Positions 16,201-59,501 of a stretch of DNA of 59,501 nt are shown piece by piece. The notes below the pieces were generated by a model, which was not told where the DNA came from, made no database searches, and saw nothing but the letters and a program-made list of their open reading frames with translations. Numbering within the stretch: position 1 is the stretch's first letter; every line of letters starts with the position of its first letter. The DNA lies in the IMG/VR virus record IMGVR_UViG_3300025767_000017, positions 1 to 59,501 of that record, one strand, 5' to 3'. The DNA comes from a virus. Lineage: Duplodnaviria > Caudoviricetes. The position numbers were made by a program, and so were the translations under genes.

Positions 16201-17136
16201 AGTAGTAATATAAAAACTAGGATTCTTAACTGATACATAATTGCCTTTAGCGATATATAATTGTACGTTGCTTTCAAGACGACCGTCGACGTTATTATCT
16301 ACACGATTATCAAATACTGTATCATTAAATTCAACTCTAAATTCAATTACTTTATCAGAAACTTCTCTAACTTTAATTTCATATGTATTGCCGTTATATA
16401 CGCCGCCTGATATAGTCGATCCAGTACGTGCTGTATAATAAATTCTTTGATATGCAGATGTAAGATCATAGTTACCTATAGGATACCCCGTTGATATACC
16501 GGCTACAAGAGATTCATTTGCTTCAAAAGACATAGTACCAACTTGAGCAAGCAACTGTGCCCAGTCAAGGCCTTTATGAGTTCTTGCTGCTGAATTAGCT
16601 GCTGCTATTCGTATCTTGCCGCCGCTGTTAAAAAAGTGACGTCTATGGTCTGCATCATCAAAAGTTACTGTAAATACTTGATAGATTAACCCATTCCACG
16701 TTGCTGTTCTTATATCAGTTAATGCTAATACTGTTTCTGCTTGCGAAGTATGTACCTTAAATTTTTCTTCTTCTACTGTAGACATTAGCGCTTCATAATC
16801 AGCTATACCTTTTTTAAAGCCAGTAGGATCATTACTAAGTGTGCCATCTTCAGGATCAACATATGCGCTTGTATCTTCAGCTACTGTGTTTGACCCAGCT
16901 AGTACTGTATCGATTGGAATACTAGCAAGTCCGCCTGCGCCAACTTGGTGTACTCTAGCATTTAAAATATCTGTATATATGTTATTAAGATCAGCAGCTT
17001 GTACGGTGCTATCTAATGAACTAACTTGACTACTTACAAGAGTCTGTCCGTATCCACTTTGTCCTGCGCCTTGTCCGTAAACTAATGATATTCTGTTTTG
17101 TAGATTGTTAATTCGTGCTGCTGTAATATTTGCCAT
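13279..17136 (-). CDS. Virion fibre protein with Calx-beta-like repeats and a glycine-rich domain
   Basis: 1285 aa; N-terminal domain paralogous to 6933..13208; 'LYWTT...ADSLTEGSEVF' repeats; TFTPGIYKWIAP...AVGAGGAG glycine-rich domain at ~14630-15390. Confidence 0.8.
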   Translation of the reverse strand: MANITAARINNLQNRISLVYGQGAGQSGYGQTLVSSQVSSLDSTVQAADLNNIYTDILNARVHQVGAGGLASIPIDTVLAGSNTVAEDTSAYVDPEDGTLSNDPTGFKKGIADYEALMSTVEEEKFKVHTSQAETVLALTDIRTATWNGLIYQVFTVTFDDADHRRHFFNSGGKIRIAAANSAARTHKGLDWAQLLAQVGTMSFEANESLVAGISTGYPIGNYDLTSAYQRIYYTARTGSTISGGVYNGNTYEIKVREVSDKVIEFRVEFNDTVFDNRVDNNVDGRLESNVQLYIAKGNYVSVKNPSFYITTSVSGFSSPAEPNKLPEYSIGIDLARNQYEIEDINNQQYASVDYVVNAVNVDYPITLYWDTEIISGNVTAADFDDNTLSGSITITADYTQAERTINRTLLADNFTEGNESFRLRLYTDASLLNFVDSTGVVTIIDNSIGETPAPSPTYAITRSTSSINEGGTVTFTVTTSNVPDGNLYWTTTGSGITAGDFTDNTLSGTVVMSGGTGTFTRTARADSLTEGSEVFDIQLRTGSINGTVVLTSGSGATTVISDTSLTPPTVSYLSNTGTTVETFTPGIYKWIAPSHINEVQVQAVGAGGAGYSNGGAGGGGGGFGSATVTVIPGQEYDVLVGAGGQFGSGADTYFRTLNTVSGRGGARGLFISNNTQLTPGGAGGGYVGTSGGAGGSGGAGYWTYGGGGGGGAGGPQGTGGTGGAGGRSISGISATNGTAGTGGAAGGGGGGGTVSPSYGAGGGGGTGFGTISNGTFGTANGQVGTGGSGGSGGESGDTAIITGGRGGNAGGGSGASGGSSSAAAGASGNGAIKLTWAPVPAPTPTIVPAISTSSSSLQFTSLSGVRPSPQRIIFTSNANVTVNSIIVSQPSGSATSIDYTGASGTPSGGTPFTVTSTRSRYIDVTFYRFGTSGTSILTIKTTAGTKIVALNWTAETATIPTYSMTVDSGKPNYPTVGDETTYSVFTYTVTTTNVPNGTVLYWTTIQSSANAPIQANDVNGFTGTVTINNNSGSFTRTAIADETTESTEYFGTELRTGSVAGPVVVSGRFAAIQDTSKTPAPPPPVTTYNPIWTTPSTVNVNEQFTVSITGGAPNTTWNANNGVDQVSGTFDSNGNWSGPARINSPGSYTYTITYSDPTSATDTVSIRVEDPTPVLRDTPVTISPSSGSVAIPLTGLAVKGAAFTVTNPTSETLNITVQEISRLTGTTTGIVPTSFTLAPGASKIVGVAGSTGSVFTSTYTYRFGILAAGYPGTYPTYTLTLYRQ

Positions 17137-40374: not shown

Positions 40375-43300
40375 TAGTAACTAAAGCCTCCGCTTGATGT
40401 TGATGAAGTTGTTGTTGCACTTGTTATTCCTGTAGTTGCTGTGGTTACACTTGTGATAACTTTACCGCTAGCTTGTAATTCAGTAGCAGTTATTTCGTCG
40501 ATAATTTCTATATCTGAAACTTGAGCAGAACTTATAAAGATTTCATCTAATTCAGATTTAATTTCAAATAAACTTCCAAAAGATTGTGTTCCTTGTCTAG
40601 GTACAATAATTATACTAAATAGTCTCGGAGTTAACGAATTCATTATATAAGCACTAAGTTCTTGGAAGTAGAATGTTTCACCAAAGTCCCAATTTTCGAT
40701 AGCAAAAAATCTATTAATTGCTTCTATAATATCAGACTTTAGTTCATTTTCGTTAACTACTATATCTTTATTTCTTACAATTTTAAACTTTACTTGAAGA
40801 TCTACGTTGGCTTTGTTTCCAAATAGTATTTTATACTTAACCGGATGATAAATCATTTCGTCACTAATTGACTTAATTGCATTAATATCATTTCCGTAGG
40901 CTCTAAATAATTGATCATTACTGGCAGGCAGCGGCTTGACTGAAATTGCATTATTCACATACTTTCTCATTTCAGTATCATAATTTTTAGTTAACAAATA
41001 TGTATCAATAATATTACTTGCACTTGGATCAATTCTGTAATTTGAGTCTGCAACATGTACATAGTGAAACTTTAAGTTGCTTCTTCCAGTATATGCTTTA
41101 TAATTAGAATTTAGAGTTGTATTTCCTAATGCCTTGTTTAGTGTTTTAAATACTTTTTCTTCTAACAAATAAAATACTTGTCCTTCGTCGTGAAGACTAT
41201 ATGCTCCTATAGCATTTTCGTTTTGTCTAATTTTGATTTCACTAGTAGTATTTGCAAAGTATTTAAAATCTTCTGCGCCATCAGACGTAGTATATTTTTT
41301 TTGAAATATTATTTTGTCAGCATCTTCAACTAAACTATTAGTTGGGTCAACTATTACGTCAAATAAATCTAGATCATCTACAACACCGTCATCGTCAAGA
41401 TCAAAAAACTGTACTTGTATTTTTCTTGTATCTACATATCCTTCAATATCTCTATATGCATCGCTAATGGTCCATGTAAAATCTTTCGAATATGATTTAG
41501 TATCGCCCGGTACTGCATTAATGCTCAGGACATCTATTTTATCACGAACGATTTGACCAATTGACGGATCATAGATTTTATCAGCGCTATCAAAAAAGAA
41601 TCTAATCTCATTTTCACTTTCAAAAATATATCTCTGATTTCTATGTGTAATAGTATATTTTTCGCCGTTTGTTTTAAACCACAACATCCAACTTGCGTCT
41701 AAGTTTTCGCCAGTTATATCTCCTGATTTTCCTAATGAGAAACTATTAACTGTATTAATATTTTCAGCAAGTATTAATGCCCATGCTCTTGTTTCGACAT
41801 CGTATCGTAATGCAAAATCATTATAAGCAAATGTTTGATCGATGATTTGTACTTTTAAATCATCCACTAAAGTATTTGATATCTTAGGCATAACTTGTAC
41901 TATCAAACTTCCATCATTTATCACATCTGATAAAATAACATCTCCTACATTAGTTACACTAACTGTATCGCCTTCGCCTGATACGCTTACTACACTTGTC
42001 CATTTGTAAATTGATGCGCCTTTTTTATTAGCATTAGTAGTAAGTGTGCCGTCTGGGACATAATACTGTTGAACTCCTTGAGATGTGGCCGGAGCAGTAA
42101 ATTTAAGCATTGTTCCTGCTTCGACAAATCTTAAATTATTAGTTGTAAATGTTCCAACTTTAAATACAGAGTTAGTGTCAGACGACGAAGTAAATACTCC
42201 TGTATTTCTATTTGTAGATTGGTCGTAGTTTTTCCAAACTATACTTAGATCAGTTGTTAATATTTTTGGAAATTCACTAAAGTAAAAGTTTTTCAATGAT
42301 GATGATTCTATAATACCATTAATTGTATTATAAATAACGCCTTCAATATCACTCTGAGTTGCAAACGTAAAATCAGTTTTTGTCTCGTATATTTCTTTAT
42401 AAATTACGCCGTCGTCTGCAAAAAGACTTGTATTAGAATACTTTCCACTTGCATCTTTTAAATCAAAGTATCTACTAATACCGCTTGATATTCTGTTAGT
42501 GCTTTTTGTTTTAATAATATCTTGACTAATTGCCAATGGTCCAATATTATAATCTTCACCTGTAATTAAACGGTTTTGTGTATAATATGTAGTAGGTGCA
42601 TTTTGTTTAATACTTGCATTTGATTCAGTAGTGCTGCTGTTAGAAACTGTGTAGTTTAAACGCATACCTAATGTAAGTGTTTCAAGCGTACCATTTCTGC
42701 CTTGATAAGGAATTTCAATATTAACATTGCCGATAGAATTTGGTGTTATAACCATATTAGCATTAGCACTAGTTCTATAATATACCTTAAAGTTACCTGC
42801 TGGAAGGTTGCCAAAAACGCCGTCACTAAAAACTAAGTTAATTCTATCGCCAATTCTAGTAACAACAGAGAATATGTTTCTCACGCCTTCAAATAAGCTG
42901 TTGTAGATTATGTTATTGCCTTCAACGTTAGCTAATTTAGTCCACTGTGTTGTTTCAAAACCGTTAGAGTCTACATTGTAAAGCCAAACATCGTCGTTAT
43001 TAATGTTTTCAGAATCTACTGCAATTATTTGATTTGGAATAGGATTTGAAACACTAAACGGTCCAGAGTCTAGTCTTCCTTGACGGAAGTGCATAAAAAA
43101 TCCTGTATTATTAGAGCCGGCGCCTTGGCCGTCATCTCTAAACAAAAATGCAGGACTTGTACCAGGAAGCGGTGGTTCTTCTACAATACGAGTTCCTTGA
43201 ATGTCAGTACTTACTGCTTCAAATCGTGTGCTTACGCCTTCGATTTGTTTGCTGAACGGGTAGATTGCACTACCAGTGTTGGTTGCATTAAATCTATATT

Positions 43301-43856
43301 TTTGTGTTTGTACTCCGTCAATTTCTTGACTTTTTAATGGATTGCCTATAGAGTTTTGTACAGGTAGCGCTGCATTAAGAATTTTAATAAACTGTTCAAA
43401 ATAATTTAAGTTAGTTTGATCATTCCACTTAACAACTCTACCTGCAAGTTTTGCATTAGCACTATCTGTAATATTTTCAGTTGTTTTAACAGTTACAATT
43501 TTTAACAATCCATTTGCTGCTTGATTTCTGCGAGGATTATAAGATAACATACGTGCAAGACGTAGAATTGATTCTCTACGTTCTGCTGTTTCAAGGAAGT
43601 TTTCTCTAGCATTTAGGTCAATACGGAAAGACAAGTTTTGACCAAGGAATGCAATCATATCAATTAGCGCAAGATATTCGCTTGACTCAATATAATCATT
43701 AAAATCTTCTGGGTAATTTTGACGCAGATAATTGATCATTGTACGACGAAGATTGTCAAAGTCATAACTTTGGAAATCAGCGTTTCTAAATGATTGGTAA
43801 ATTCTTTTCCAGTCTTCAGTTACTAATAACCTTGACTGTCTATCGCTTGAAGACAT
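40374..43856 (-). CDS. gp6: Baseplate wedge subunit, gp6-like
   Basis: YDFDNLRRTMINYL...FNDY...ENFLETAERRESILRLARMLSYNP, FSDGVFGNLP, QNRLITGEDY; adjacent to gp25. Confidence 0.85.
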   Translation of the reverse strand: MSSSDRQSRLLVTEDWKRIYQSFRNADFQSYDFDNLRRTMINYLRQNYPEDFNDYIESSEYLALIDMIAFLGQNLSFRIDLNARENFLETAERRESILRLARMLSYNPRRNQAANGLLKIVTVKTTENITDSANAKLAGRVVKWNDQTNLNYFEQFIKILNAALPVQNSIGNPLKSQEIDGVQTQKYRFNATNTGSAIYPFSKQIEGVSTRFEAVSTDIQGTRIVEEPPLPGTSPAFLFRDDGQGAGSNNTGFFMHFRQGRLDSGPFSVSNPIPNQIIAVDSENINNDDVWLYNVDSNGFETTQWTKLANVEGNNIIYNSLFEGVRNIFSVVTRIGDRINLVFSDGVFGNLPAGNFKVYYRTSANANMVITPNSIGNVNIEIPYQGRNGTLETLTLGMRLNYTVSNSSTTESNASIKQNAPTTYYTQNRLITGEDYNIGPLAISQDIIKTKSTNRISSGISRYFDLKDASGKYSNTSLFADDGVIYKEIYETKTDFTFATQSDIEGVIYNTINGIIESSSLKNFYFSEFPKILTTDLSIVWKNYDQSTNRNTGVFTSSSDTNSVFKVGTFTTNNLRFVEAGTMLKFTAPATSQGVQQYYVPDGTLTTNANKKGASIYKWTSVVSVSGEGDTVSVTNVGDVILSDVINDGSLIVQVMPKISNTLVDDLKVQIIDQTFAYNDFALRYDVETRAWALILAENINTVNSFSLGKSGDITGENLDASWMLWFKTNGEKYTITHRNQRYIFESENEIRFFFDSADKIYDPSIGQIVRDKIDVLSINAVPGDTKSYSKDFTWTISDAYRDIEGYVDTRKIQVQFFDLDDDGVVDDLDLFDVIVDPTNSLVEDADKIIFQKKYTTSDGAEDFKYFANTTSEIKIRQNENAIGAYSLHDEGQVFYLLEEKVFKTLNKALGNTTLNSNYKAYTGRSNLKFHYVHVADSNYRIDPSASNIIDTYLLTKNYDTEMRKYVNNAISVKPLPASNDQLFRAYGNDINAIKSISDEMIYHPVKYKILFGNKANVDLQVKFKIVRNKDIVVNENELKSDIIEAINRFFAIENWDFGETFYFQELSAYIMNSLTPRLFSIIIVPRQGTQSFGSLFEIKSELDEIFISSAQVSDIEIIDEITATELQASGKVITSVTTATTGITSATTTSSTSSGGFSY

Positions 43857-48435: not shown

Positions 48436-51400
48436 TTATTGTGGTCCATTGCCGGCGGCTGCTCTTGCTCTTAATCGTTCTTGACGAGCACGCCAAGCGT
48501 CTGCTTGATTTCTTGCCACTGTTCCTGGTGCAAGATTCCCAGAATTATTATTCACCGGTGCTGACGGGAATGTAGACTGATTTGGACTATATGCAAAACC
48601 TCCTATTTGAACAACTGGTTGAGAAAATGCTATGTCGTCGCCGCCGCTGGTAGAAGTAGCTGGGAATAAAGGTTGGCTCATTAGTAAATCCTCTGCTGAT
48701 GCTGTTAAATTATTAATTGCACTAATAGGAGAAGTAGTACTACACGGATTTACTGCTCCTGTTGTACTATTTACACTATTATTTGCTGCATTCGGAGATC
48801 CTGGTTCAGTATTAGCATTATTAATGCTCTTAGTACCATCAGCTTTAATTGCAGTTGTACTTTCTGTGGGCTCGTCATCTTGGCCGCGGCGCCTGATCAT
48901 TTTTAAATTTTGCGTAAATTTGCCTTTACTAAAAGTATTAGTTACTGCCCATATACTAAACAGTCCACTAAACTGCGGAACACGTTTTGGCATTTCCATA
49001 GTTGCTCCATTAACTTGATAATCAAACGGCGAATTAAAGTTAACTACACAAAATATTTCGCTTTGTAAATAATTCATAGTACCATCATCTAATACACTAG
49101 GATTTCCTGATGACTTGCCAACATAGTTTCCAGTTTGTTGTGGAAGGAAAAACGGATCTCCCCATATTTCCATTTCAGCAGTAACCATATCAACAGTTTG
49201 ATTTAGTAATGTATTGTGAAATTGTTCTGCAATTCTTAATTTTAGATCGCCACTTTCTGAACCAGTAGGATTGTCAAGTTCGTTGACTTCTTTCAGTTGA
49301 GCACCGGGTTCTCGTCGTTTAGCATTTGAAGTTTCAGCAGCAACTTCAGAACCTGTAGAATCATCACCAGCTTGAAAAGTTGCAACCTTGCTGCCACCTG
49401 TTGCAACAGTTGCAGCATTTTGTCCAAAGTTACTAAATGCTGTCATAAAGAATTGATTATTAAACTGTATATCAAAGTTTAATACATCTTCATTTTTTCC
49501 AGTATAAAAGTAATTGTATTGTTTAGGTGCTAATGCTTTTAACCCTTCGGTATTTTTAGGTCGCTGTGTTGTGCCAGTATGTTTTGCTTCGTCTGAATAA
49601 TACGGAATAATACTATATACATAAATCTTTGGAGACGATCCTACTTGGCGTTCAGCAGATGGATTATTATCTAAAAATACTTGTGTATCAATTTTAAACC
49701 ATTTTCTAACACCGTTAGTTGTTTCTTCTGTAGCGTTATCTCTTGCAAATTTACTCTTTTTAACAATTTTTTCAACAATACTAGTAATTGTTTCACCTTG
49801 TCGAAACTGTGTAGTTCTAGCCTTTTCTGCTTTACTAGTTTCTGCATTACTAATATCTACTACATCACCGTTCTCGTCATATGCTGCACTTTGGTCTGCT
49901 TGCGCTTCTTGCCCGCCGTCTGCTGTATTTTCTACTAATGTGCTTAGTCCAATTTCATTCATGTTGTTTGTATCGCTTGCATACGCCTTTAGTGTATTAA
50001 ACAATAAACTAGGAGCAGTTACAGAATTATTATCAATGCCGCTTTGCTTCCTTGCGGTACTAATATCACCATTTGCTTGTGCTAAACCTCTTTCTCGACG
50101 TTGCTGTTCAGCAGCATTAATAGTTAATGCAGTTTTTTCAGTAGCTACTTGATCTTTTAAATTACCAATTATATTAACTAATGCGTCTGGTGTTTTAGGA
50201 AATGCAATAATAAATCTATCGCCAGACACAATTGTTTTAGCTTGTTCAAGTTCTTGCACTCGTTCATTAAACACTGCCATTACACTTTTTTCATCGCCAT
50301 TTAATACTTCGTGTACTACTGCGCCTGTGACATTAATTTGTGTTTTTGATTTTTGAACATTGTCGTCTAATCCGCTTTCACTGTATGGAACAGCTTGCAC
50401 AGCATATTCGCTACCCTTGGCTTGAACCGAAAAGTCTACCTTAGTAATCATTATAGGAATGTAAATAGGGTTAGCAACTTCCCTACTAGAATTTTTACCG
50501 TATTCGTCATATCCAATAAAGTCAATTTTTAAACAGAAGGGAGCATTTATATAATTTGCATAACCTAATTCCGCTGCCGAACCAATGAGTGCTTCAATAA
50601 ATCCTCCCATACTGTACGGCTCTACAACATCAAATTTTATAGCAGACCCCAACGCAGTGCCAGTATTAGCGTTAGGAGCAATAACTGCATCAATATCTAA
50701 ATTATCAATGTAATATTCTGCATGACTAGTAATAGCATCTCCGAAATCACTATACGTGTTTCCAGCTGTTTCGTCAAATATTTGATAACGCTTGTCTAAG
50801 TTGCCACCACTAGATTTAATAATATAATTTTGTACAAAATCTCCAGAGCTTCGATATACTCCAGGATAATTGAACTCTTCTGAATTTAAGATACCTAATG
50901 TAATTACATAATTATAATGATTGTGTTCTCGCAAAGGATTTGGAATTTTACTAGCTGCGGCGCCTTTGTTAACAACTATATTGCCGCCTGCTGCTACACC
51001 TGCTGTGTCCCAAGGCGATTTAAACGAAAGATCTAAGTAGTCGGCATATGGATTAATTGATTGTTGTGTTTCAATAAGTTGTCGAAGCTTATCAAACTCT
51101 CCGCCGACTGCTCCTACTAATTGTGACACATCTTGAGCAAGGACAGAAATTGGATTTGATATTAAATTACCAAAGTTAGAAAAGCTGCCTACTAACGAAT
51201 TTAGGTTACCAATATCAAACCCGTTAAATTGTGAAATTTTTGACGATATAGAAGAAATACTTGAGCCAAATTCGCTCGATACTCTACTTAAAGTACCAGT
51301 AACACCTTGTATTGTGCCCAATGCATTAGTAATTCCTGCAATATTTCCTCCCAGCGGAGACTGGAATCCACTTGATAATCTAGCATTTACATTAGTAGTT

Positions 51401-51762
51401 CCAAAGTTAGATAATCCTTGTATCTGTTGTGATATTGCTCCTGCTGCTGCTGCAACATTTCCTATATCTGCAGGACTCCGTATCAAGTTATCCAACTGTC
51501 CAGGGTTGAACACTTGTCCTGTAAAGCTAGTTGCAAGAGAATTAAATTGTTTTGGAGACACACTTGTAGAAAGAGAAGTAAAATCACCAACCGAATCTCT
51601 AATTTTATTCATCTCCGGAGTAATTGCTCCTACAGAAGAAGCAATTCTATTTAACTTTGCTGATACATCTTGTGCTGATCGTGTCAAGCTGTTAACTGAT
51701 GCAACTGCATTATTAACCTTGTTTATCTGTGATGTTATTTTTGAAAAACTAAATTTAGGCAT
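48436..51762 (-). CDS. Baseplate hub-like tail protein (gp27/VgrG-type, tentative)
   Basis: Lies between gp53-like and gp5; C-terminal EMEIWGDPFFL...FSGLFSIWAVTNTFSKGKFTQNLKMIR typical of hub proteins; low-complexity S/N/G N-terminus. Confidence 0.55.
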   Translation of the reverse strand: MPKFSFSKITSQINKVNNAVASVNSLTRSAQDVSAKLNRIASSVGAITPEMNKIRDSVGDFTSLSTSVSPKQFNSLATSFTGQVFNPGQLDNLIRSPADIGNVAAAAGAISQQIQGLSNFGTTNVNARLSSGFQSPLGGNIAGITNALGTIQGVTGTLSRVSSEFGSSISSISSKISQFNGFDIGNLNSLVGSFSNFGNLISNPISVLAQDVSQLVGAVGGEFDKLRQLIETQQSINPYADYLDLSFKSPWDTAGVAAGGNIVVNKGAAASKIPNPLREHNHYNYVITLGILNSEEFNYPGVYRSSGDFVQNYIIKSSGGNLDKRYQIFDETAGNTYSDFGDAITSHAEYYIDNLDIDAVIAPNANTGTALGSAIKFDVVEPYSMGGFIEALIGSAAELGYANYINAPFCLKIDFIGYDEYGKNSSREVANPIYIPIMITKVDFSVQAKGSEYAVQAVPYSESGLDDNVQKSKTQINVTGAVVHEVLNGDEKSVMAVFNERVQELEQAKTIVSGDRFIIAFPKTPDALVNIIGNLKDQVATEKTALTINAAEQQRRERGLAQANGDISTARKQSGIDNNSVTAPSLLFNTLKAYASDTNNMNEIGLSTLVENTADGGQEAQADQSAAYDENGDVVDISNAETSKAEKARTTQFRQGETITSIVEKIVKKSKFARDNATEETTNGVRKWFKIDTQVFLDNNPSAERQVGSSPKIYVYSIIPYYSDEAKHTGTTQRPKNTEGLKALAPKQYNYFYTGKNEDVLNFDIQFNNQFFMTAFSNFGQNAATVATGGSKVATFQAGDDSTGSEVAAETSNAKRREPGAQLKEVNELDNPTGSESGDLKLRIAEQFHNTLLNQTVDMVTAEMEIWGDPFFLPQQTGNYVGKSSGNPSVLDDGTMNYLQSEIFCVVNFNSPFDYQVNGATMEMPKRVPQFSGLFSIWAVTNTFSKGKFTQNLKMIRRRGQDDEPTESTTAIKADGTKSINNANTEPGSPNAANNSVNSTTGAVNPCSTTSPISAINNLTASAEDLLMSQPLFPATSTSGGDDIAFSQPVVQIGGFAYSPNQSTFPSAPVNNNSGNLAPGTVARNQADAWRARQERLRARAAAGNGPQ

Positions 51763-52065: not shown

Positions 52066-53033
52066 TATACAAATCCTTCCTCGCCGCCAACAAAGTTTCC
52101 TTTAGCAAAATCAGTTAGACTAAATCTAGCTTGCGATCTACGTGCATATTGTGGAGCTGCTGTAATAGTTATAGTTACCATTGTTGGAACATAGTTGTCT
52201 TCGCCATTAACTGTACATTTGATATAATCAACGTCGTTAGGTAAGTCAGTTGTAAAGTTAGTAATCACAACTGGTATATGATTTAAAACATGTTTACCAT
52301 AACCGTTTAATCTACACACAACTGGTGGCAATCCTAGAGTTCCTTCGTCGCTGCCGCCGTAAAACATTTTTGTAGCCGATCTTAAAAAATGCAAAGCTGC
52401 TATAAAATATTGTCCGTCAGCTGATGTTTCATTTACAAAATCACCAGTAATAGTAAACGCATCTACTTGACTATTTTCATACGAATTATACGGATAGTTT
52501 GTATGGACAGGTTGTATTTGAGAATAATTTGCACTATTACTTACTAATACTGTAGGAGTGAACGGAAAGATCAATCTATTTCCAGTCCCAGCCAACGGCG
52601 ACAATACTGAACTATTTGATATTAGTATTTCTGGTACCGAAATACTAACTCTCCAATCACTAGCATCTGCAGAACTAATGTTACTTGAAATAACTGCTCT
52701 AGTTAGAGTCCGTGTTCTAGGAGCAGCATTATATCCAACTTGTTGCGCTGCGTTGCCTACCATTCTAAGTGCTCTGCCAGCTTGAGCTAAATTTCCGCCC
52801 GAGTTTATAATGTTGTCAATTTGTCCTACGGTATTTTTAATAGATCCTGCAATATTAGATACTTGATTCAGTGTACTACTGAATCCTCCAGAAGTATTAA
52901 AATTTTGTATTTGGCCTGCTGTTCTATTAATGTTAGAAGTAAAATTATTAATAGTACTAGAAACTTGAGTAACATTGCTAAAGGCACTATTTACTTTACT
53001 TGATAATTGATTGAAGGCGCTAAAAATGCTCAT
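52065..53033 (-). CDS. Tail-tube initiator/baseplate gp48/gp54-like protein
   Basis: LIFPFTP...ITGDF...LRSATKMFYG...PPVVCRLNGYG...VVITNFTTD, a tube-like fold signature; first gene of the tail operon, with an AGGAG SD. Confidence 0.55.
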   Translation of the reverse strand: MSIFSAFNQLSSKVNSAFSNVTQVSSTINNFTSNINRTAGQIQNFNTSGGFSSTLNQVSNIAGSIKNTVGQIDNIINSGGNLAQAGRALRMVGNAAQQVGYNAAPRTRTLTRAVISSNISSADASDWRVSISVPEILISNSSVLSPLAGTGNRLIFPFTPTVLVSNSANYSQIQPVHTNYPYNSYENSQVDAFTITGDFVNETSADGQYFIAALHFLRSATKMFYGGSDEGTLGLPPVVCRLNGYGKHVLNHIPVVITNFTTDLPNDVDYIKCTVNGEDNYVPTMVTITITAAPQYARRSQARFSLTDFAKGNFVGGEEGFV

Positions 53034-53053
53034 TATTTGTTCTCCTGTACTAC

Positions 53054-53060
53054 TATTTAG
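53054..53060 (-). promoter_or_regulatory. Late-promoter-like CTAAATA driving the tail/baseplate operon
   Basis: Upstream of the SD of 53033; abuts the divergent sigma70 -35 box. Confidence 0.5.
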
Positions 53061-53089
53061 TTGACAAAATTAAGTAAGTATATTATAAT
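53061..53089 (+). promoter_or_regulatory. Consensus sigma70 promoter for gp55
   Basis: TTGACA (53061-53066), 17-nt spacer, TATAAT (53084-53089); AGGAG SD at 53101. Confidence 0.9.
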
Positions 53090-53111
53090 GTATATATAAC
53101 AGGAGAACTCA

Positions 53112-53957
53112 ATGAGACCCAAGAACTATCTAAACAATAAAGACATACTTAAAGAAATACATAGATCAAAAAACACGTTTAATAGTTACGTAGAACCAAC
53201 ATATGGCGATTATGATATTATCTTACCTAGCGTAGATAAAATTAATCGATTGACAGTTGCAGAAGCGAAACGCAACAAAGCAAAAAAGATGTCTTCGACA
53301 GAATATGATCGAAGAAAATCACTCGGTGAAAAAGTAAAACAAGCAGAGTGCGAAACTCTAGCATCAGAAATTACAAAAGAAGAATTAATCTTCCGTGTTA
53401 TGACTTTTGATCATATTCCAGAAGAACCGGGTCGTAAAAAGAACCCAAAGACCGTAGCAGATACAAAGATTAAACTTCCGTTTCCGCCGTTTCAACATTA
53501 CAAATATAACGAAAACGACGAACTTATTTTAGTTGGTAAAAGTCACTGGGTAGGTGGCATGGACAACGGACATTTTAGCTTAGACCACGGTAAAGCAACT
53601 AATCAACTTGCAATGATGTGGTTAAAACTTGTTGACCGTTACGCAACACGCGGCAACGTTCGTGGTTATACCTATAATGACGAAATGAAAGGTCAAGCAA
53701 TCCTACAACTTGCGCAAATCGGCTTGCAGTTTGACGAATCTAAGTCAGATAATCCGTTTGCATACTATACAGCCGCAGTTACTAACAGTTTTGTACGTGT
53801 TATCAACATTGAAAAGCGTAATCAGAATATTAGAGACGACATTTTAGAAATGAATGACTTAGATCCTAGTTATACGAGACAAAATGCAGGCGAATGGGAA
53901 GCTAGTGTAAAGCGAAATGAAGAAGCAGCACCTACACAGTTCACTGATTCCAAATAA
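53112..53957 (+). CDS. gp55: Late-transcription sigma factor, gp55-like
   Basis: NYLNNKDIL...GYTYNDEM...FDESKSDNPFAYYT...SFVRVINIEK; T4 synteny gp55-gp47-gp46. Confidence 0.85.
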   Translation: MRPKNYLNNKDILKEIHRSKNTFNSYVEPTYGDYDIILPSVDKINRLTVAEAKRNKAKKMSSTEYDRRKSLGEKVKQAECETLASEITKEELIFRVMTFDHIPEEPGRKKNPKTVADTKIKLPFPPFQHYKYNENDELILVGKSHWVGGMDNGHFSLDHGKATNQLAMMWLKLVDRYATRGNVRGYTYNDEMKGQAILQLAQIGLQFDESKSDNPFAYYTAAVTNSFVRVINIEKRNQNIRDDILEMNDLDPSYTRQNAGEWEASVKRNEEAAPTQFTDSK

Positions 53958-53961
53958 GAGG

Positions 53962-53990
53962 TTGACAACTGTTAATTTTTGTTATATACT
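53962..53990 (+). promoter_or_regulatory. Sigma70 promoter for gp47/gp46
   Basis: TTGACA (53962-53967), 17-nt spacer, TATACT (53985-53990). Confidence 0.85.
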
Positions 53991-54017
53991 TTAACAAGTA
54001 TATATGGAGAACTAATC

Positions 54018-55034
54018 TTGTTTAAAAAAGCTGCGGTATTTACAGATATCCATTTTGGTCTAAAAGGCAATAGTCGTGTTCACAACGAAGATTGCGAAGA
54101 ATTTATTGATTGGTACATTCAAACTGCTAAAGATAACGGTTGCGAGACTGGTATCTTCTGCGGTGACTGGCATCATAATCGTAATTCGCTTAATCTTACC
54201 ACTATGGATGCAACAATCAGAAGCATGGAGAAGCTAGGTGCTGCATTTGAGAAGTTTTACTTCTTTGATGGTAACCACGATTTGTACTATAAAGACAAAC
54301 GTTCTGTTAACAGCACAGCATTTGCAAAGCACATTCCAGGCATTACGTTTGTTGATGAGATTCTTATTGAAGATGACGTTGCACTAGTGCCGTGGCTAGT
54401 TGGAGACGAATGGAAGAAGATGGGCGACATCAAAACAAAGTATTTGTTTGGTCACTTTGAACTTCCTAGCTTTTACATGAACGCATTGGTGCGTATGCCT
54501 GATCATGGCGACTTAAAGCCTGAACATTTTAAACATCAAGACTATGTATTCAGTGGTCACTTCCATAAAAGACAAAAACAAGGTGCTATTCATTACATTG
54601 GTAATGCATTTCCGCACAATTATGCAGATGTAGGCGATGATGATCGAGGTATGATGATACTTGACAAGGAAAACAACAAGGAACCAGAGTTTATTAACTG
54701 GCCTAACTGTCCCAAGTACCGTACTGTTACACTCAGCAACTTGATTGATAATGCAGATACCTTTATTAAGAGTAAAATGTACTTGCGTGTTACACTAGAC
54801 TTGCCTATCAGCTACGAAGAAGCAAGTTTTATCAAAGAAACCTTCATCAATACTTACAATTGCCGTGAAATTACACTAATTCCACAAAAACAGCTAGAAG
54901 AAATGAGTACAGAGCTTGATATTGCACAGTTTGAAAGTGTAGATCAAATTGTAAGCAACGAAATTGCACAACTTGACACCAACAACTATGACAAGAGCAT
55001 GCTGTTGCAGATTTATAATGGATTAGAAGCATAA
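54018..55034 (+). CDS. gp47: Recombination endonuclease subunit (Mre11/SbcD-like)
   Basis: FTDIHFG, CGDWHH, DGNHD, GHFE and SGHFH phosphoesterase motifs. Start reassigned to TTG 54018 (GGAGA SD 54006-54010; the ORF-track start lies inside the promoter). Confidence 0.92.
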   Translation: MFKKAAVFTDIHFGLKGNSRVHNEDCEEFIDWYIQTAKDNGCETGIFCGDWHHNRNSLNLTTMDATIRSMEKLGAAFEKFYFFDGNHDLYYKDKRSVNSTAFAKHIPGITFVDEILIEDDVALVPWLVGDEWKKMGDIKTKYLFGHFELPSFYMNALVRMPDHGDLKPEHFKHQDYVFSGHFHKRQKQGAIHYIGNAFPHNYADVGDDDRGMMILDKENNKEPEFINWPNCPKYRTVTLSNLIDNADTFIKSKMYLRVTLDLPISYEEASFIKETFINTYNCREITLIPQKQLEEMSTELDIAQFESVDQIVSNEIAQLDTNNYDKSMLLQIYNGLEA

Positions 55035-55035
55035 T

Positions 55036-56805
55036 ATGATTAAGATCAAGGATTTAACTGTCAAAAACTTCATGAGCGTGGGCAATCAAACTCAAGCAGT
55101 AGACTTTGACCATGAACAACTAACACTTGTGCTGGGTGAAAACTTAGATCAAGGCGGAGATGACAGCGGATCACGTAATGGTACTGGTAAAACTACTATC
55201 ATTAACGCACTTAGCTATGCATTGTACGGTCAAGCACTTACAAACATCAAACGCAACAACTTAATCAACAAAACTAACTCAAAAGGTATGTTGGTTACAC
55301 TGCATTTTGAAAAGGATGGCAACGATTATCGCATTGAACGCGGTCGTTCACCTAATATCTTTAAGTTTTATGTAAACGATCAAGAAACTCTTGTAGACGA
55401 ATCGCAAGGCGACAGTAGACAAACACAAGACGACCTAAACACACTGTTGGGTATGAGCCACGATATGTTTAAACACATTGTTGCACTCAATACCTATACT
55501 GAACCGTTTTTGAGCATGCGAGTTAACGATCAACGTGCTATTATTGAGCAACTGTTGGGTATTACTATCCTTTCAGAGAAAGCAGATGCACTCAAAGAGC
55601 AAACTCGTCAGACAAAAGATGCAATTACAGAAGAAACTCTAAAGATCAATGCTATTCAAACAGCAAATGAGAAGATTGAAGCAAGTATTGAGAGTTTAAA
55701 GCGCACTCAACGTGCTTGGCAGGCTAAACACAAGCAAGATCAAGACAAACTAGCAAGTGCTATTGAAGAATTAGAGAAATTAGACATTGAAGCAGAACTT
55801 GAAGCACACGAAAAGCTAGCCAATTGGACAGAACACAACAATGCTATTACGGCTCTTAGAAAAGAACTAAGCACACTAGAGCCTGCACTGACTCGTGCAG
55901 ACAAAGCTGTTGAAAAAGTTGTCAAAGACATTGCAGAACTTGAGGATGCAACCTGCTACACATGTGGTCAGGCGTTACATGCAGATAAAAAAGCAGAAAT
56001 TGCAACTCGTAAAGACAAAGAACTACTTGACGCAACTACATACCAACAAGAGATTGCAGGTAAGGTAGTTGAAGTAATGAAAGCACTTGAAGGGATCGGT
56101 GATATCAACGGCAAGCCTACTACTTTTTATGAAAATGCTAAAGAAGCATATGAACATAGAAGTAATGTAGACAATTTAAAGCAGACTTTGGCTAATAAGG
56201 AACAAGATGACGACCCTTATGCTGTACAAATTGATGAATTGAATGAAACTGCTATACAAAAAGTCGACTGGAACGTTGTAAACGAGCTTACCAGCTATAA
56301 AGAGCATCAAGAGTTCTTGCTGAAGCTGTTAACAAACAAAGATAGTTTCATTCGCAAGAAGATCATTGATCAAAACTTAGCTTACCTAAACAACAGACTT
56401 ACATATTATCTTGACAAGATTGGATTGCCGCATCAAGTTGTGTTCCAAAACGATTTGAATGTTGAAATTACACAGCTAGGTCAGGATCTAGACTTTGATA
56501 ACTTATCACGTGGCGAACGCAACAGACTTATCTTAGGTTTGAGCTTTGCATTCCGTGATGTTTGGGAAAGTCTATATCAAAACATTAACTTGTTGTTCAT
56601 CGACGAGCTTATTGACAGCGGCATGGACACAGCAGGCGTTGAAAACTCACTGGGCATCCTTAAAAAGATGGCACGTGACCGTAATAAAAACATTTACCTT
56701 ATCTCACACAAAGATGAACTCATTGGACGAGTCAATCATGTGTTACGAGTTGTAAAAGAAAATGGATTTACTAGCTACGCCAACGATTTGGAGGTAGTAG
56801 AGTGA
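55036..56805 (+). CDS. gp46: Recombination ATPase subunit (Rad50/SbcC-like)
   Basis: Walker A NGTGKT, coiled coil with CYTC zinc hook, LSRGE signature, LLFIDE Walker B, ISHK. Confidence 0.95.
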   Translation: MIKIKDLTVKNFMSVGNQTQAVDFDHEQLTLVLGENLDQGGDDSGSRNGTGKTTIINALSYALYGQALTNIKRNNLINKTNSKGMLVTLHFEKDGNDYRIERGRSPNIFKFYVNDQETLVDESQGDSRQTQDDLNTLLGMSHDMFKHIVALNTYTEPFLSMRVNDQRAIIEQLLGITILSEKADALKEQTRQTKDAITEETLKINAIQTANEKIEASIESLKRTQRAWQAKHKQDQDKLASAIEELEKLDIEAELEAHEKLANWTEHNNAITALRKELSTLEPALTRADKAVEKVVKDIAELEDATCYTCGQALHADKKAEIATRKDKELLDATTYQQEIAGKVVEVMKALEGIGDINGKPTTFYENAKEAYEHRSNVDNLKQTLANKEQDDDPYAVQIDELNETAIQKVDWNVVNELTSYKEHQEFLLKLLTNKDSFIRKKIIDQNLAYLNNRLTYYLDKIGLPHQVVFQNDLNVEITQLGQDLDFDNLSRGERNRLILGLSFAFRDVWESLYQNINLLFIDELIDSGMDTAGVENSLGILKKMARDRNKNIYLISHKDELIGRVNHVLRVVKENGFTSYANDLEVVE

Positions 56806-57008
56806 TAGAAGATGATGCACATGACTTACTTGTGAAAGCATACCTTGAATATTTTAAAGCAAACGAAAAGTTTGTAAGACGAAACAGTGTACGAACACAT
56901 CGCGCAGTACGAAAGTGCCTGCGTGATATTCGTGCATTAGCCAAAGAACGTGCAGACGAAATACACGAACTGCACAATACAACACGAGTAACCAGAAAAG
57001 ACAAATAA
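56802..57008 (+). CDS. Small basic helical protein (possible nucleic-acid binding)
   Basis: 68 aa, Arg/Lys-rich (RTHRAVRKCLRDIRALAKERA); GTG start with GGAGG SD; 4-bp overlap with gp46. Confidence 0.7.
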   Translation: MIEDDAHDLLVKAYLEYFKANEKFVRRNSVRTHRAVRKCLRDIRALAKERADEIHELHNTTRVTRKDK

Positions 57009-57033
57009 CAATTTAGGCTCTGGTAAGTAACTG

Positions 57034-57483
57034 ATGCAGTGGACTTACCAAGGACAAACAATTGACACAATACCAGAAGAGTATGAAGGCTTTGTTTATC
57101 TTATCACCAATACCACTACAGGCCAGAAATACATAGGCAAGAAACTAGCAAGATTTAAAACTACTAAGCCACCACTCAAAGGCAAGAAGAATAAGAGACG
57201 CGGTACTAAAGAAAGCGATTGGAGAGACTACTGGGGTTCCAGTGATAGACTCAATGCAGACGTAGCCGCACTAGGCGAAGATAAGTTTACAAGAGAAATA
57301 TTATACCTATGTAAAGGTAGGGGCGAAATGTCCTACATAGAGGCAAGAGAACAATTTGACCGCAGGGTACTTGAAACTGATGAATACTACAACGGTATTA
57401 TCAATGTTAGAGTTGGCGGATCAGACAAACTCAAACAGGCATTGCTAGAACACTCCATCAAGGCAAAACAATCCAACACCTAA
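57034..57483 (+). CDS. Stand-alone GIY-YIG endonuclease (Seg-like catalytic domain only)
   Basis: GFVYLITN...KYIGKK, YWGSS, FTREIL, conserved Glu (YIEAREQ) and YYN. Confidence 0.85.
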   Translation: MQWTYQGQTIDTIPEEYEGFVYLITNTTTGQKYIGKKLARFKTTKPPLKGKKNKRRGTKESDWRDYWGSSDRLNADVAALGEDKFTREILYLCKGRGEMSYIEAREQFDRRVLETDEYYNGIINVRVGGSDKLKQALLEHSIKAKQSNT

Positions 57484-58004
57484 GGTTAGCGGGCCAGTTT
57501 GCAAATACCGCTGTGGAAAAGGTCCCCTGAGAAGGACACACGTAACATATTGATCAACGCACCGGAGTGCGGAAGCCATCAGACAAATTGGGCTCACTGG
57601 TTGATATAGGTTGATTGTTGGCAATCGAAAAGCACATATGTTCATAAAAACTTCTTAGCAACAGGAACGAAGCGGAAGGTAAGAATATAGTGTACAAGCT
57701 ATAAATTTGTTTTATAGTTTATGTACTATATTCTGATGTCGACGTAGGTTGGGAAAGGTCAGAGCCCATTGAACTGTGTAATACAAATACCTATTTCCAA
57801 TGTCTATGGCTGGATAAGACTCACATGAAGTTATATCTTTTTAGACGACGGGGCCGTAACAGGTTCCGTCTGACTGAAACGATCTACATGAAATTAATAC
57901 AATATCACTTCGTAATATTGCTTGTTCATATATAAATCATTTAATTAAAACGAAGTGTAAGTAGTTTGAGCGTTAGCGAAAACTTGTATGAGCTTGCTCA
58001 TACA
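57484..58004 (+). ncRNA. Putative large structured non-coding RNA (or structured DNA element)
   Basis: No credible ORF, more G/C-rich than the other spacers, many nested stems with G-U pairs and a 7-bp long-range pairing (see findings). Strand inferred from G-U pairs and flanking gene direction. Confidence 0.55.
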
Positions 58005-58026
58005 TTAGTTGTTTAAGTAAGTTTGA

Positions 58027-58034
58027 AATAAATA
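58027..58034 (+). promoter_or_regulatory. T4-like late promoter (AATAAATA)
   Basis: ~30 nt upstream of ATG 58065, with an AAGGA SD in between. Confidence 0.55.
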
Positions 58035-58064
58035 TATAATAATTGATATTAAGGAATAATCACA

Positions 58065-58337
58065 ATGAAGATATCTGAGTTTGCTGTTGATAGACAGGTA
58101 GATGAATTAACTGCTGGTGATGTCGGTACTGCTGCTGGAAAAGCAACTAGAGCTGTTGGTTCTGGTATTAAAAACTTTGCTAAAGGGTTTGCAAGTGGCG
58201 TTACTGGAAAAACAGCAGCACCTGCAACTAAATCTAATCCTGTACTTGATCCTATTAAGGCATCGATTGCAAAACTTAATCCTAAACAACAGGCAGCACT
58301 TAGAACACAACTTGCTAAGAAAGCAGGAGTACAATAA
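58065..58337 (+). CDS. Small Ala/Lys-rich protein, putative internal head protein
   Basis: MKISEF...VDEL N-terminus followed by a basic A/G/K-rich amphipathic region; late promoter and SD upstream. Confidence 0.65.
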   Translation: MKISEFAVDRQVDELTAGDVGTAAGKATRAVGSGIKNFAKGFASGVTGKTAAPATKSNPVLDPIKASIAKLNPKQQAALRTQLAKKAGVQ

Positions 58338-59501
58338 TGAGACAGTCACAATTTAAAAAACGCACACTAATTACTGAAGGATGGAATGATCCTCGACTTA
58401 GTTTACTAGAAACAAAATATATTATTCCTTTTGTTGCTGATGTTGAACGTTATATCGTAGAAGCACAACTTACTCCAGATCAAATTAAACAATTGTTTAC
58501 CTCAGTTGAGCAAGGTGCAACTGATGCAGGCGGTAATAGAACTATGGTTGGCAAAGGAAAAGATGCTGCAAGTTTTATTAGTAAAAAGATCGATGAACTT
58601 GGCGCTCAACTAAAGCAAGCAGGCCCTGTTAAAAATGCAGATGCTAAATTTAAAGAATTAAAAGCTAAAATTGGTGCTACTGACAGTAAGGTTGTTAAAG
58701 CAATACAAGGTGTTAGTGACTGGGCTATAGCTAATCCTGGTAAAGCAAGTATTGCTGTAGGTGTGTTAACGGCAGCAGCGTCAATGGCCGGCGGACCATT
58801 AGGTGGTGCCATCGGCGGCTTCTTAGCAAGAGCAACTAAAGATTTGTTACAGGGTGCTGACCTTTCAACTGCTGTAGGAAAAGCTGCTAAGACTGGTATT
58901 GTTGGTGCCCTAGTTGGATTTGGTCTTGAAAAAATAGGTGACGTATTGGGAGATGCTCTTGCTTGGGGTAACGACACAATTAATCCGTCTTACATGACTG
59001 CTAAATGGGACTACATGGATACTGATATTGGATCAGGTGACTGGATGACTGCAAAACTAGTAGGTTATCCTGAAGACATTGAGCCTATTAGAGATATGTG
59101 GACACAAGCAAGTTCTGCGTTAGAAGCAGATAACTATGCTAAATTTGATGCAGTGTGGTCAAAAATAGAAGCAGCAGTTGACCAATTAAATAATCCAGAA
59201 TATCTTGCTTCGCTTGATGGCACTGACAAAGCAAGAGATACTTGGCAAGCTGGAATGCAAGCATTTAGTAAAATGATGGATGGAGTTGCTGCTGGCGCAC
59301 AAGGTGCAGCACAAGCAAGCGATGACAAAAAAGAAAGTGTACAACTTAATCCGTTACAAATTGAAATTGTTCTAGAATGGTGCGAAGGAACACCTGCTGT
59401 AATTCTTAACGAAGGTCCAATGGATGTACTTAAAAAAGGTGCAGACGCTGTAGGCGGAGCTCTTAAAAAAGGTGCTGCTGCTGTAGGTGCTAAAGCAGCA
59501 A
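58337..59501 (+). CDS. Ala/Gly-rich protein, putative internal head/ejected protein (3' truncated by the window)
   Basis: Not in the ORF track. Manual translation from ATG 58337 (AGGAG SD, TAATG coupling): MRQSQFKKRTLITEGWND...IVEAQLTPDQI...IAVGVLTAAASMAGGPLGGAIGGFLA...ILNEGPMD; open to the window end. Confidence 0.85.
   Translation, partial: MRQSQFKKRTLITEGWNDPRLSLLETKYIIPFVADVERYIVEAQLTPDQIKQLFTSVEQGATDAGGNRTMVGKGKDAASFISKKIDELGAQLKQAGPVKNADAKFKELKAKIGATDSKVVKAIQGVSDWAIANPGKASIAVGVLTAAASMAGGPLGGAIGGFLARATKDLLQGADLSTAVGKAAKTGIVGALVGFGLEKIGDVLGDALAWGNDTINPSYMTAKWDYMDTDIGSGDWMTAKLVGYPEDIEPIRDMWTQASSALEADNYAKFDAVWSKIEAAVDQLNNPEYLASLDGTDKARDTWQAGMQAFSKMMDGVAAGAQGAAQASDDKKESVQLNPLQIEIVLEWCEGTPAVILNEGPMDVLKKGADAVGGALKKGAAAVGAKAA

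Follow-up and report, generated by a model that had tools for sequence, protein, structure and literature searches.

A conserved structured RNA with twin direct-repeat boxes beside a GIY-YIG nuclease gene in environmental phages

The window analyzed here, the complete viral contig IMGVR_UViG_3300025767_000017 of IMG/VR with 59,501 nt (59.5 kb), carries a stand-alone GIY-YIG nuclease gene that is followed by 581 nt (57484-58064) without a credible open reading frame (ORF). The remaining spacers of the window are shorter than about 80 nt, and a gap of this size is exceptional for it. What occupies this gap, and does it belong to the nuclease? A preliminary description of the DNA had pointed out the ORF-free gap of about 580 nt and its many potential stems, and had proposed either a GIY-YIG ribonucleoprotein (RNP) comparable to the HEARO/OMEGA systems or a new class of large phage non-coding RNA (ncRNA). 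The gap itself was confirmed, with no ORF conserved in 62 relatives, and it harbors a conserved, structured RNA of the plus strand, referred to as type 1 (Table 1).

Searches of viral contigs with the SbcC/gp46-like protein encoded upstream (gp46) and with the nuclease returned at least 600 matches each, and 80 loci were kept per search. In nearly all loci reaching that far, the region behind the nuclease stop codon is 73-87% conserved (blastn) up to ~57985-58007. The identity per 30-nt bin, calculated from an alignment of the window and 62 related loci (63 sequences), is 0.54-0.80 over most of 57484-57993, compared with 0.73-0.91 in the nuclease ORF, and falls to 0.06-0.44 past 57994; the variable hairpin bin 57694-57723 has an identity of 0.27 and a gap fraction of 0.44. 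Across these 62 loci the RNA is conserved almost to the level of the adjacent GIY-YIG gene. No open frame common to the 63 sequences was found, the frames vary by locus, and the length of the element ranges from 354 to 608 nt with many indels. Where an insertion follows the nuclease gene, homology restarts at 57434-57461. The RNA is about 550 nt in size, with an unmapped 5' end at or before ~57445-57461 and the terminal hairpin as its probable 3' end. The single-sequence fold energy is modestly unusual in comparison with shuffles (z = -2.6 for the plus and -3.5 for the minus strand), and the weight of the claim is therefore placed on the comparative evidence. The IMG/VR contigs of relatives often end within the RNA. 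About 15 of 121 stop 578-613 nt past the nuclease start, and since their ends adjoin a subdomain that occurs in two forms (Table 1), strain variation has probably broken the assembly there.

RNAalifold consensus folding of gappy MAFFT alignments resulted in poor structures, and helix detection on a mixed alignment of type 1 and a second subtype (type 2, see below) was noisy. Both approaches were set aside, and we therefore used type-1-only alignments and explicit pair counts in 73 sequences, together with a control in which the partner strand was slid by one or two columns; pairs with changes on both sides are designated double changes. At least 12 helices with compensatory changes were detected, among them a pseudoknot (PK1) and a long-range helix (P6). 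PK1, P2, P4, P4b, P5, P6, P7, P9, P10, and P12 are paired in 94-100%, and most of them contain one to four double-changed pairs. The slide control led to a sharp drop in pairing for most helices, e.g., to 17-36% for PK1, and the maxima of mutual information coincide with the counted helix pairs, including those of P6 and P7. The 5' strand of PK1 is part of the final codons of the nuclease ORF, and its 3' strand is located in the loop of hairpin P5. The covariation score of P12 exceeded 500 of 500 shuffles in two alignments, of which the mixed-type one is partly out of register (83% of cells paired). Additional compensatory changes in the P9/P10 region were found in two loci without a nuclease gene (L203, L208; loci are numbered with the prefix L). 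G-U cells clearly outnumber A-C cells across the helices (497 vs 76; 433 vs 2 in P2, P3, P4, P5, and P12 together), thus indicating that the plus strand is the folded one.

The 3' end of the RNA is formed by two further hairpins. The first one is predicted to contain a tandem G-A motif below a GNNA loop; its outer helix shows three double changes, and its inner two pairs are 100% paired. Of 142 loci with sufficient sequence downstream, 132 contain the motif, and a further hairpin follows in 127 of these. By eye, GNNA and UUCG tetraloops cap hairpins of the RNA. A stretch reminiscent of RNase P (GGGAAAGGTCAGAGCCCA) has no match to RNase P in Rfam.

Several of the stems listed in the preliminary description reappear in the comparative structure, namely, AGCGG/CCGCT (P2), GTCC/GGAC (P3a), CGCAC/GTGCG (P4b), TAGGT/ACCTA (57745-49/57789-93, 98% paired; part of P9), and the hairpin 57847-70 (P12). 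Others had to be redrawn. AACATAT/ATATGTT is only 30% paired, and ATGTTCA pairs with TGAAC at 57770-74 instead; GATTG/CAATC (76%) gives way to the register GGTTG/CAATC, which is 99% paired (P5). The predicted pseudoknot TGGGCTC/GAGCCCA is 80% paired without compensatory change, and GAGCCCA is invariant in relatives that lack TGGGCTC; the actual long-range pairs are PK1 (57473-78/57616-21) and P6 (57640-44/57770-74). The long hairpin 57682-57734 is the sixth confirmed stem, with a reservation: its basal pairs 57683/57733 and 57684/57732 co-vary, but it represents a variable insertion that is absent or different in many relatives, and BLAST alignments are interrupted from 57682 to 57735 in several loci.

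Table 1. Features of the RNA locus and its surroundings in the window (pairing and double changes refer to 73 type-1 sequences)
Feature	Position	Strand	Remarks
Structured non-coding RNA gene, type 1	57454..58004	+	conservation, no conserved ORF, helix counts, G-U excess
PK1 pseudoknot	57473-78 (CCAACA) / 57616-21 (TGTTGG)	+	100% paired, 4 of 6 pairs double-changed
P2	57488-92/57508-12	+	100% paired, no double change
P3 (weak)	57513-15/57539-41	+	register ambiguous, a 2-column slide pairs too
P3a hairpin	57522-25/57534-37	+	4 of 4 pairs double-changed
P4	57547-53/57601-07	+	100% paired, 3 double changes; encloses P4b and variable subdomain
P4b hairpin	57558-62/57567-71 (57558-71)	+	94% paired, 4 of 5 pairs double-changed
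Variable subdomain	57572-57600	+	two alternative forms among relatives
P5 hairpin	57609-13/57622-26	+	99% paired, 3 double changes
P6 long-range helix, closes central domain	57640-44 GTTCA / 57770-74 TGAAC	+	98% paired, 3 of 5 pairs double-changed
P7, around conserved loop TTAGCAACAGGAACGAAGCG, inside P6	57651-54/57675-78	+	98% paired, 3 of 4 pairs double-changed
Variable peripheral hairpin	57682..57734	+	length and sequence vary; missing in many relatives
P9	57744-49 GTAGGT / 57789-94 ACCTAT	+	99% paired, 1 double change
P10, around invariant AAAGGTCAGAG	57750-53 TGGG / 57765-68 CCCA	+	100% paired, no double change
Twin-box module, common to subtypes	57809..57897	+	R1 match 76.9 bits, E=2.6e-12
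Box 1 core ACATGAA	57823-29	+	
P12 hairpin	57847-55/57862-70	+	100% paired, 2 double changes
Box 2 core ACATGAA, after P12 and TGACTGAAAC	57886-92	+	
P13 hairpin	57900-08/57912-20 (57900..57920)	+	87% paired, 7 of 9 pairs double-changed
G-A/GNNA hairpin	57963..57984	+	AGTTT/AAACT outer helix, putative tandem G-A/A-G, GC/GC inner stem, GNNA loop
3'-terminal hairpin, terminator-like in window	57985..58004	+	8 pairs, loop of 4; 8 of 8 pairs double-changed
36-aa ORF, window only	57825-57935	+	starts at ATG in box 1, in frame through box 2; not conserved
Contig-end clusters of relatives	~57548-57553 and 57611-57646		adjoin two-form subdomain
Stand-alone 149-aa GIY-YIG nuclease gene	57034..57483	+	last codons overlap 5' part of RNA
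68-aa basic, Arg-rich ORF	56802-57008	+	overlaps gp46 stop
SbcC/gp46-like gene	55036-56805		left of RNA locus; complete ORF, 589 aa
SbcD/gp47-like gene	53979-55034		left of RNA locus
Late sigma factor gene	53112-53957		left of RNA locus
Next gene after RNA gap	starts 58065		
Long ORFs of 5624, 2091, 1285, 1160, and 1108 aa	23500-40374, 6933-13208, 13279-17136, 40374-43856, 48436-51762 (in this order)	-	

The 3' part of the RNA contains a module with the consensus GAC-TC-[box]-spacer-hairpin-UGACUG-AAC-GAUCU-[box], in which two 7-nt box cores flank the P12 hairpin. The two cores are identical in 74 of 76 model-confirmed loci and come in 11 variants, including ACATGAA, GGATAAT, GGATGAA, GAATAAT, AGATAAT, and AGATAAA; the two exceptional loci differ at the last position only. 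None of 12 chance pattern matches has identical boxes. Direct repeats that change in step are indicative of a common reader with two equal sites or of a common pairing partner. No complement of the boxes stands out in the 59.5-kb window. The spacing of the boxes is 63 nt in the window and 48-67 nt in relatives.

Several explanations of the boxes were considered and rejected. A rolling-circle "never-ending ORF" between the boxes is not compatible with their distance, which is divisible by three in no more than 46 of 123 sequences, nor with the frames, most of which are closed. The 68-aa Arg-rich protein encoded upstream of the nuclease has homologues in most loci with the box ACATGAA, GGATAAT, or GAATAAT, but its ORF is present in none of the 13 GGATGAA and none of the seven AGATAAA loci. 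Other resemblances of the box, namely, to a stop-codon pair, to a start-site mimic, to a CsrA site, to box C/D, and to a T-box specifier, do not fit all 11 variants.

A model of the module with 84 positions, designated R1, found exactly one match per source in all 76 RNA-bearing sources and none in 15 control sources, which comprised the Melnitz locus, the PA5oct locus, and 13 chance or false pattern matches. Five contigs of 120-270 kb contain the module once each, and the complete genomes of PA5oct and Melnitz are without a match. Some bins of metagenome-assembled genomes (MAGs) contain two copies, which may belong to different phages.

How far does this RNA extend beyond the close relatives of the window? 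A gapped pattern derived from the best-conserved part of type 1 and the divergent locus L082 retrieved at least 120 stretches from viral contigs, including phages whose gp46 is only 54-65% identical to that of the window. Altogether, the RNA was recovered at a minimum of 149 distinct loci of 202 fetched. Among them is the second subtype, type 2, which combines another 5' domain and another central core with the same 3' module. Its 5' domain corresponds to the Rfam family RF01718 (Polynucleobacter-1), an orphan motif with a model of 141 nt: 4 of 12 diverse loci and all 17 loci picked as type 2 match it, with type-2 scores of 58-115 bits compared with a gathering cut-off of 37 bits. The match begins directly after the nuclease stop codon and ends ~140 nt 5' of the box module. 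In both subtypes the nuclease gene is located upstream and the twin-box module with the G-A and terminal hairpins downstream, and we treat the RNA of the window as a sister subtype of the RF01718-bearing RNA, joined to it by gene context and the 3' module. Lineages exchange modules by recombination, as documented by the 5' domain of L082, which is combined with a type-2-like core in this locus and with a type-1-like core in L203 and L208.

The window itself has no match to RF01718 or any other Rfam family at gathering score, and at E <= 10 the region 57400-58100 shows none to RF01718 and only chance-level ones to other families, e.g., to a microRNA model in the variable hairpin. The proposal of a new class of large phage ncRNA is largely supported, with a conserved, co-varying plus-strand RNA of ~550 nt that lacks an Rfam match in the window, but its novelty is incomplete, as the type-2 relatives carry the orphan RF01718. 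The passages on this motif in Weinberg et al. 2010 (PMC2864571) describe a probable RNA with a probably cis-regulatory role that is found in Burkholderiales and in fresh water and estuary. A literature search by motif name returned this founding paper as the only one naming RF01718. The type-2 members occupy the same place as the 5' domain of the window, and the habitat given in those passages of PMC2864571 agrees with our data, including one match in a Polynucleobacter MAG contig. In contrast, the RF01718 model lacks the central core and the twin-box 3' module of the ~400-550-nt RNA, and the element treated in the same passages as probably cis-regulatory in Burkholderiales is here part of a phage RNA gene located after a nuclease gene, with unrelated genes downstream.

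Among 50,697 cultured phage records, blastn searches with the window region and with a type-2 RNA did not detect the RNA. The pattern matched 18 times in 596 Gb of prokaryote genomes. Twelve of these matches, with unlike boxes and no nuclease gene, are due to chance; the other six have identical boxes, and one of the six is a protein-coding repeat (L288). Literature on phage ncRNA, GIY-YIG proteins, and jumbo phages contained no account of the RNA of the window in our searches, and as far as these reached, the twin-box 3' module is undescribed.

The nuclease matches the Pfam family SegE_GIY-YIG (PF19835, E=2.9e-35) with residues 3-123, covering all 123 positions of the profile. Only 26 residues follow the GIY-YIG domain, and a C-terminal DNA-binding domain is absent. 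A sequence comparison with the PDB yielded no match. The protein also belongs to PHROG 447 (E=1.5e-39), whose profile comprises 148 positions, and has homologues in 792 cultured phage records; its 149 aa are therefore the normal length of a common phage protein family. PHROG 447 and many GenBank records of cyanophages and FelixO1-like phages label this GIY-YIG family as "NAD synthetase", which conflicts with the Pfam match.

The linkage of nuclease gene and RNA was assessed in 130 unique loci with at least 1 kb of upstream sequence. The gene is located within 1.3 kb upstream on the same strand in 125 of them, at a distance of ~1.4-1.5 kb in two, and is missing in three (L203, L208, L293). The association noticed in the window is thus widespread but not obligatory, since each partner also occurs without the other. 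Copies of the RNA without a nearby nuclease gene were found at L203 and its duplicate L290, L208, L293, and L308, and they sit in unrelated contexts, i.e., behind a class II aldolase gene (L208), among hypothetical genes (L203), and in an integrase region (L293). The contigs of L203 and L208 represent 11-13% of a genome according to CheckV, which indicates that these are jumbo phages, too. Conversely, phage Melnitz encodes a 71%-identical nuclease and lacks a match to the RNA-module model in its complete genome. Nuclease and gp46 identities are discordant in several lineages (79%/59% in L240, 57%/59% in L242), in agreement with lateral exchange of the nuclease gene, and the box GGATAAT is found both with nucleases 75-79% identical to that of the window and with others only 50-62% identical. 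Gene and RNA are separable units that usually travel together, and a functional tie between them is possible. A group I intron is not indicated, with no match to RF00028 at E <= 10 in 57400-58100 and a complete gp46-like ORF upstream.

Three of the nuclease-less copies deserve a closer description. At L208:2234-10534, a contig rated viral and 13% complete, the genes around the RNA are of cell type (UvdE, NifU/IscU, Bax1-I, class II aldolase, cytochrome c, SHMT, and FAD oxidoreductase). At L293:1808-5668, a bacterial MAG contig, a distant homologue of the twin-box module with the box AAATGAG is located between two integrase-family genes, ~2.7 kb from two tRNA genes. L308 (G010:C51:8997-12132) is an RF01718-bearing RNA with neither a nuclease nor a gp46 gene in the 3.1-kb locus; its boxes are diverged and, by eye, near-identical (GGCGAAA/AGCGAAA), and the G-A/GNNA and terminal hairpins are retained.

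A promoter of the form TTGACA-N17-TATACT between the nuclease gene and the RNA was found in 6 of 130 loci, compared with an expectation of 0.1. In L003, L021, L137, L146, L254, and L272, an insertion of ~85-115 nt with a TTGACA-N17-TATACT/TATAAT promoter separates the gene from the RNA. No promoter was seen by eye within the nuclease ORF of the window. The terminator-like site of the window has the tail TTAGTTGTTT. Parts of the stretch are present in 20 public runs, six of which are RNA libraries. Metatranscriptome contigs of four runs cover the nuclease ORF and the RNA, and a 267-nt RNA-library contig spans 57742-58004 with two mismatches and three gaps and stops at the end of the terminal hairpin. 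The RNA-library check suggested in the preliminary description accordingly showed a presence in RNA libraries, but neither strand nor ends, and expression is weakly indicated.

The closest structural analogs are GOLLD and ROOL, as well as OLE and raiA, i.e., RNAs of several hundred nt with many helices, pseudoknots, conserved loops, and an association with phages or prophages. The RNA of the window is likewise large, many-helix, pseudoknotted, and phage-associated with conserved loops, but there are no nearby tRNA genes in the window, and none of the GOLLD, ROOL, OLE, and raiA models matches, neither the whole window at gathering score nor 57400-58100 at E <= 10. We know of no counterpart of the twin direct-repeat boxes in GOLLD/ROOL-type large ncRNAs. 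The HEARO/OMEGA systems of IscB and TnpB resemble the locus in having a nuclease gene with a large structured RNA alongside. TnpB guide RNAs overlap the 3' end of the ORF, and so does the RNA of the window through PK1. However, the nuclease has a GIY-YIG fold instead of RuvC/HNH, neither a variable guide segment nor transposon ends were seen, the RNA and the gene can occur apart, and the HEARO model has no match in the window at gathering score or in 57400-58100 at E <= 10. A third comparison concerns the Seg proteins of T4-type phages, with which the nuclease shares the SegE-type GIY-YIG domain. SegB sits in the tRNA gene cluster of T4-like phages, and T4 endonuclease II consists of the catalytic domain alone; similarly, the nuclease adjoins a conserved RNA gene and is a catalytic domain by itself. 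It differs from the Seg proteins by the missing C-terminal DNA-binding domain. Its occurrence in 125 of 130 loci is not that of a sporadic gene, but the discordance of nuclease and gp46 identities would fit lateral exchange.

We favor a trans-acting scaffold or decoy that is read through its twin boxes. We read the plus-strand region from ~57445/57461 to 58004 as the gene of a large, independently folding ncRNA that is found in an abundant group of aquatic jumbo phages, with PA5oct-like phages as nearest cultured relatives, and that would act in trans via the boxes, and we consider this interpretation moderately probable. The RNA is modular and consists of a lineage-variable 5' domain, a central core closed by the long-range helix, and the common 3' module; the 5' domain of the window starts in the last codons of the nuclease ORF and is locked by the pseudoknot, and that of the other subtype is RF01718. 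Along the 3' module, the order is box 1, a G+C-rich hairpin, UGACUGAAAC, box 2, one or more variable hairpins, the tandem-G-A/GNNA hairpin, and the terminal hairpin. Synthesis of the RNA may occur by read-through of the nuclease transcript or, where a sigma-70-type promoter is inserted, from this promoter. In the role of a scaffold or decoy, the RNA would offer two identical single-stranded 7-nt boxes to a partner that is specific to the lineage and binds at two equal sites, either a dimeric protein or a nucleic acid that pairs with both boxes. The GIY-YIG gene would be a conserved neighbor, perhaps one that came to settle next to the conserved RNA gene, and not an RNA-guided enzyme.

A number of observations weigh against the scaffold or decoy, or reduce the force of the evidence for it. 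The terminal hairpin is mostly devoid of a T-rich tail (median of three T in 9 nt, 127 loci), and one RNA-library contig continues past 58007 into unlike sequence. The RNA-library evidence consists of contigs that document presence only and no level, with DNA carry-over not excluded; the depth over 57123-57773 is higher than elsewhere in 53000-59501, but the RNA runs were chosen with this very stretch, so that the depth provides no ranking against the neighbors. MAFFT alignments may favor or blur helices, and P3a, P13, P15, and the terminal hairpin are 81-87% paired; moreover, kin sequences can outscore shuffles even without structure. The R1 model was built from both types, and its matches in both are partly given by construction. 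Outside the 3' module, types 1 and 2 are regarded as homologous because of their context and not because of an alignment. We looked for a complement of the boxes within the RNA, and none was consistent. Finally, the linkage with the nuclease gene exceeds that of a chance neighbor and leaves room for a functional tie.

This tie could take two forms. The RNA might be a cis-acting 3' untranslated region of the nuclease mRNA that stabilizes the transcript or gates translation or termination of a potentially toxic nuclease, with PK1 as a possible sensor of ribosomes at the stop codon. In both subtypes the RNA begins within the ORF or directly behind it, the coverage by RNA-library contigs extends to the nuclease ORF, most loci have no visible promoter of their own in front of it, and the likely cis-regulatory role given to RF01718 in the motif's description in Weinberg et al. 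2010 (PMC2864571) points in the same direction. We nevertheless regard this explanation as unlikely, given the nuclease-less copies behind unrelated genes, the dedicated promoter in six loci, and the position of the best-conserved common part, the 3' module, farthest from the ORF; some 500 nt with pseudoknots, invariant loops, and twin boxes would probably also exceed the needs of known 3' stabilizers. The RNP of the preliminary description, in which the RNA binds the 149-aa nuclease and targets, activates, or restrains it after the manner of an omega-RNA, HEARO, or an RNA antitoxin, with boxes that are guide-like or bound by the nuclease, appears quite unlikely. The tight linkage of fixed polarity across gp46 identities of 54-90%, the overlap via PK1, a protein of roughly one catalytic domain, and two identical boxes suited to a dimeric binder would all fit. 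The RNA is found without the gene at five places including the duplicate, though, and Melnitz has the nuclease in a complete genome lacking the module; the short protein is of normal length for a family that is common in cultured phages, where no RNA copy was detected; box variant and nuclease lineage do not correspond one-to-one; and there was no sign of a variable, guide-like segment in single-stranded form. The data do not support an RNA-guided nuclease. A bolder version, for which we see little chance, makes the twin boxes programmable: they would pair with a nucleic-acid target or position a dimer in an RNA-directed or RNA-gated system with a minimal GIY-YIG nuclease, or belong to a new class of ribozyme or RNP whose specificity is reset via both boxes.

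Explanations that dispense with an RNA fare worse. A DNA-level element such as a replication origin, with the boxes as initiator-bound iterons, the A+T-rich stretch 57895-57960 as site of unwinding, and the hairpins as DNA structures, is very improbable. Co-varying direct repeats are reminiscent of iterons and their initiators, the G+C content falls to 0.275 around 57900-58099, and the fold energy is unusual on both strands, but the excess of G-U over A-C cells is strand-specific, duplex DNA has no need of compensatory changes in a pseudoknot and in a helix whose strands are 130 nt apart, the tetraloops seen by eye are those of RNA, and there are two short boxes only. The proposal of a decayed coding sequence, in which a once longer Seg-type endonuclease left the remnant of its C-terminal DNA-binding domain, or else of an overlooked small gene, is close to refuted. 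Seg and I-TevI enzymes do have such C-terminal domains, and the 36-aa ORF of the window spans both boxes in frame; however, an open frame common to all aligned sequences is lacking, indels are frequent, the box distance mostly disregards the reading frame, conservation tracks helices instead of codons, and the PHROG profile implies that the protein is of full length.

The RNA gene of the window is genuine, large, and pseudoknotted, and represents a new subtype and a large extension of RF01718, a catalogued but uncharacterized motif. What has been a 141-nt motif since 2010 is now placed in an RNA gene of 400-550 nt as one of its exchangeable 5' domains, and the window adds a subtype missed by the Rfam model. 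The boxes, which change in step over 11 variants, point to a specific partner and offer an experimental handle. Large ornate RNAs are rare, and several of them proved to act as ribozymes, as RNP scaffolds, or as self-assembling cages. Being abundant in environmental phages and present in RNA libraries, the RNA is well suited for studies of structure and function.

The completeness of the window is rated 16%, which for 59.5 kb corresponds to a genome of ~370 kb, and the completeness figures of the contigs place the RNA-carrying phages at ~355-370 kb. ARAGORN detected neither tRNA nor tmRNA in the window. The nearest cultured relatives by gp46 are the jumbo phage PA5oct (50% identity), followed by Phosso and Atu_ph07. 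PA5oct has the same order of sigma factor, SbcD, and SbcC genes as the window, with neither the nuclease gene nor the RNA after it. The 68-aa ORF between gp46 and the nuclease has no Pfam or PHROG match, and the 90-aa and 388+-aa products encoded downstream of the RNA have no significant family match in either database; the downstream genes (57994-59501) vary between relatives. Most of the contig is occupied by giant ORFs on the minus strand, the longest of which comprises 5624 aa (Table 1).

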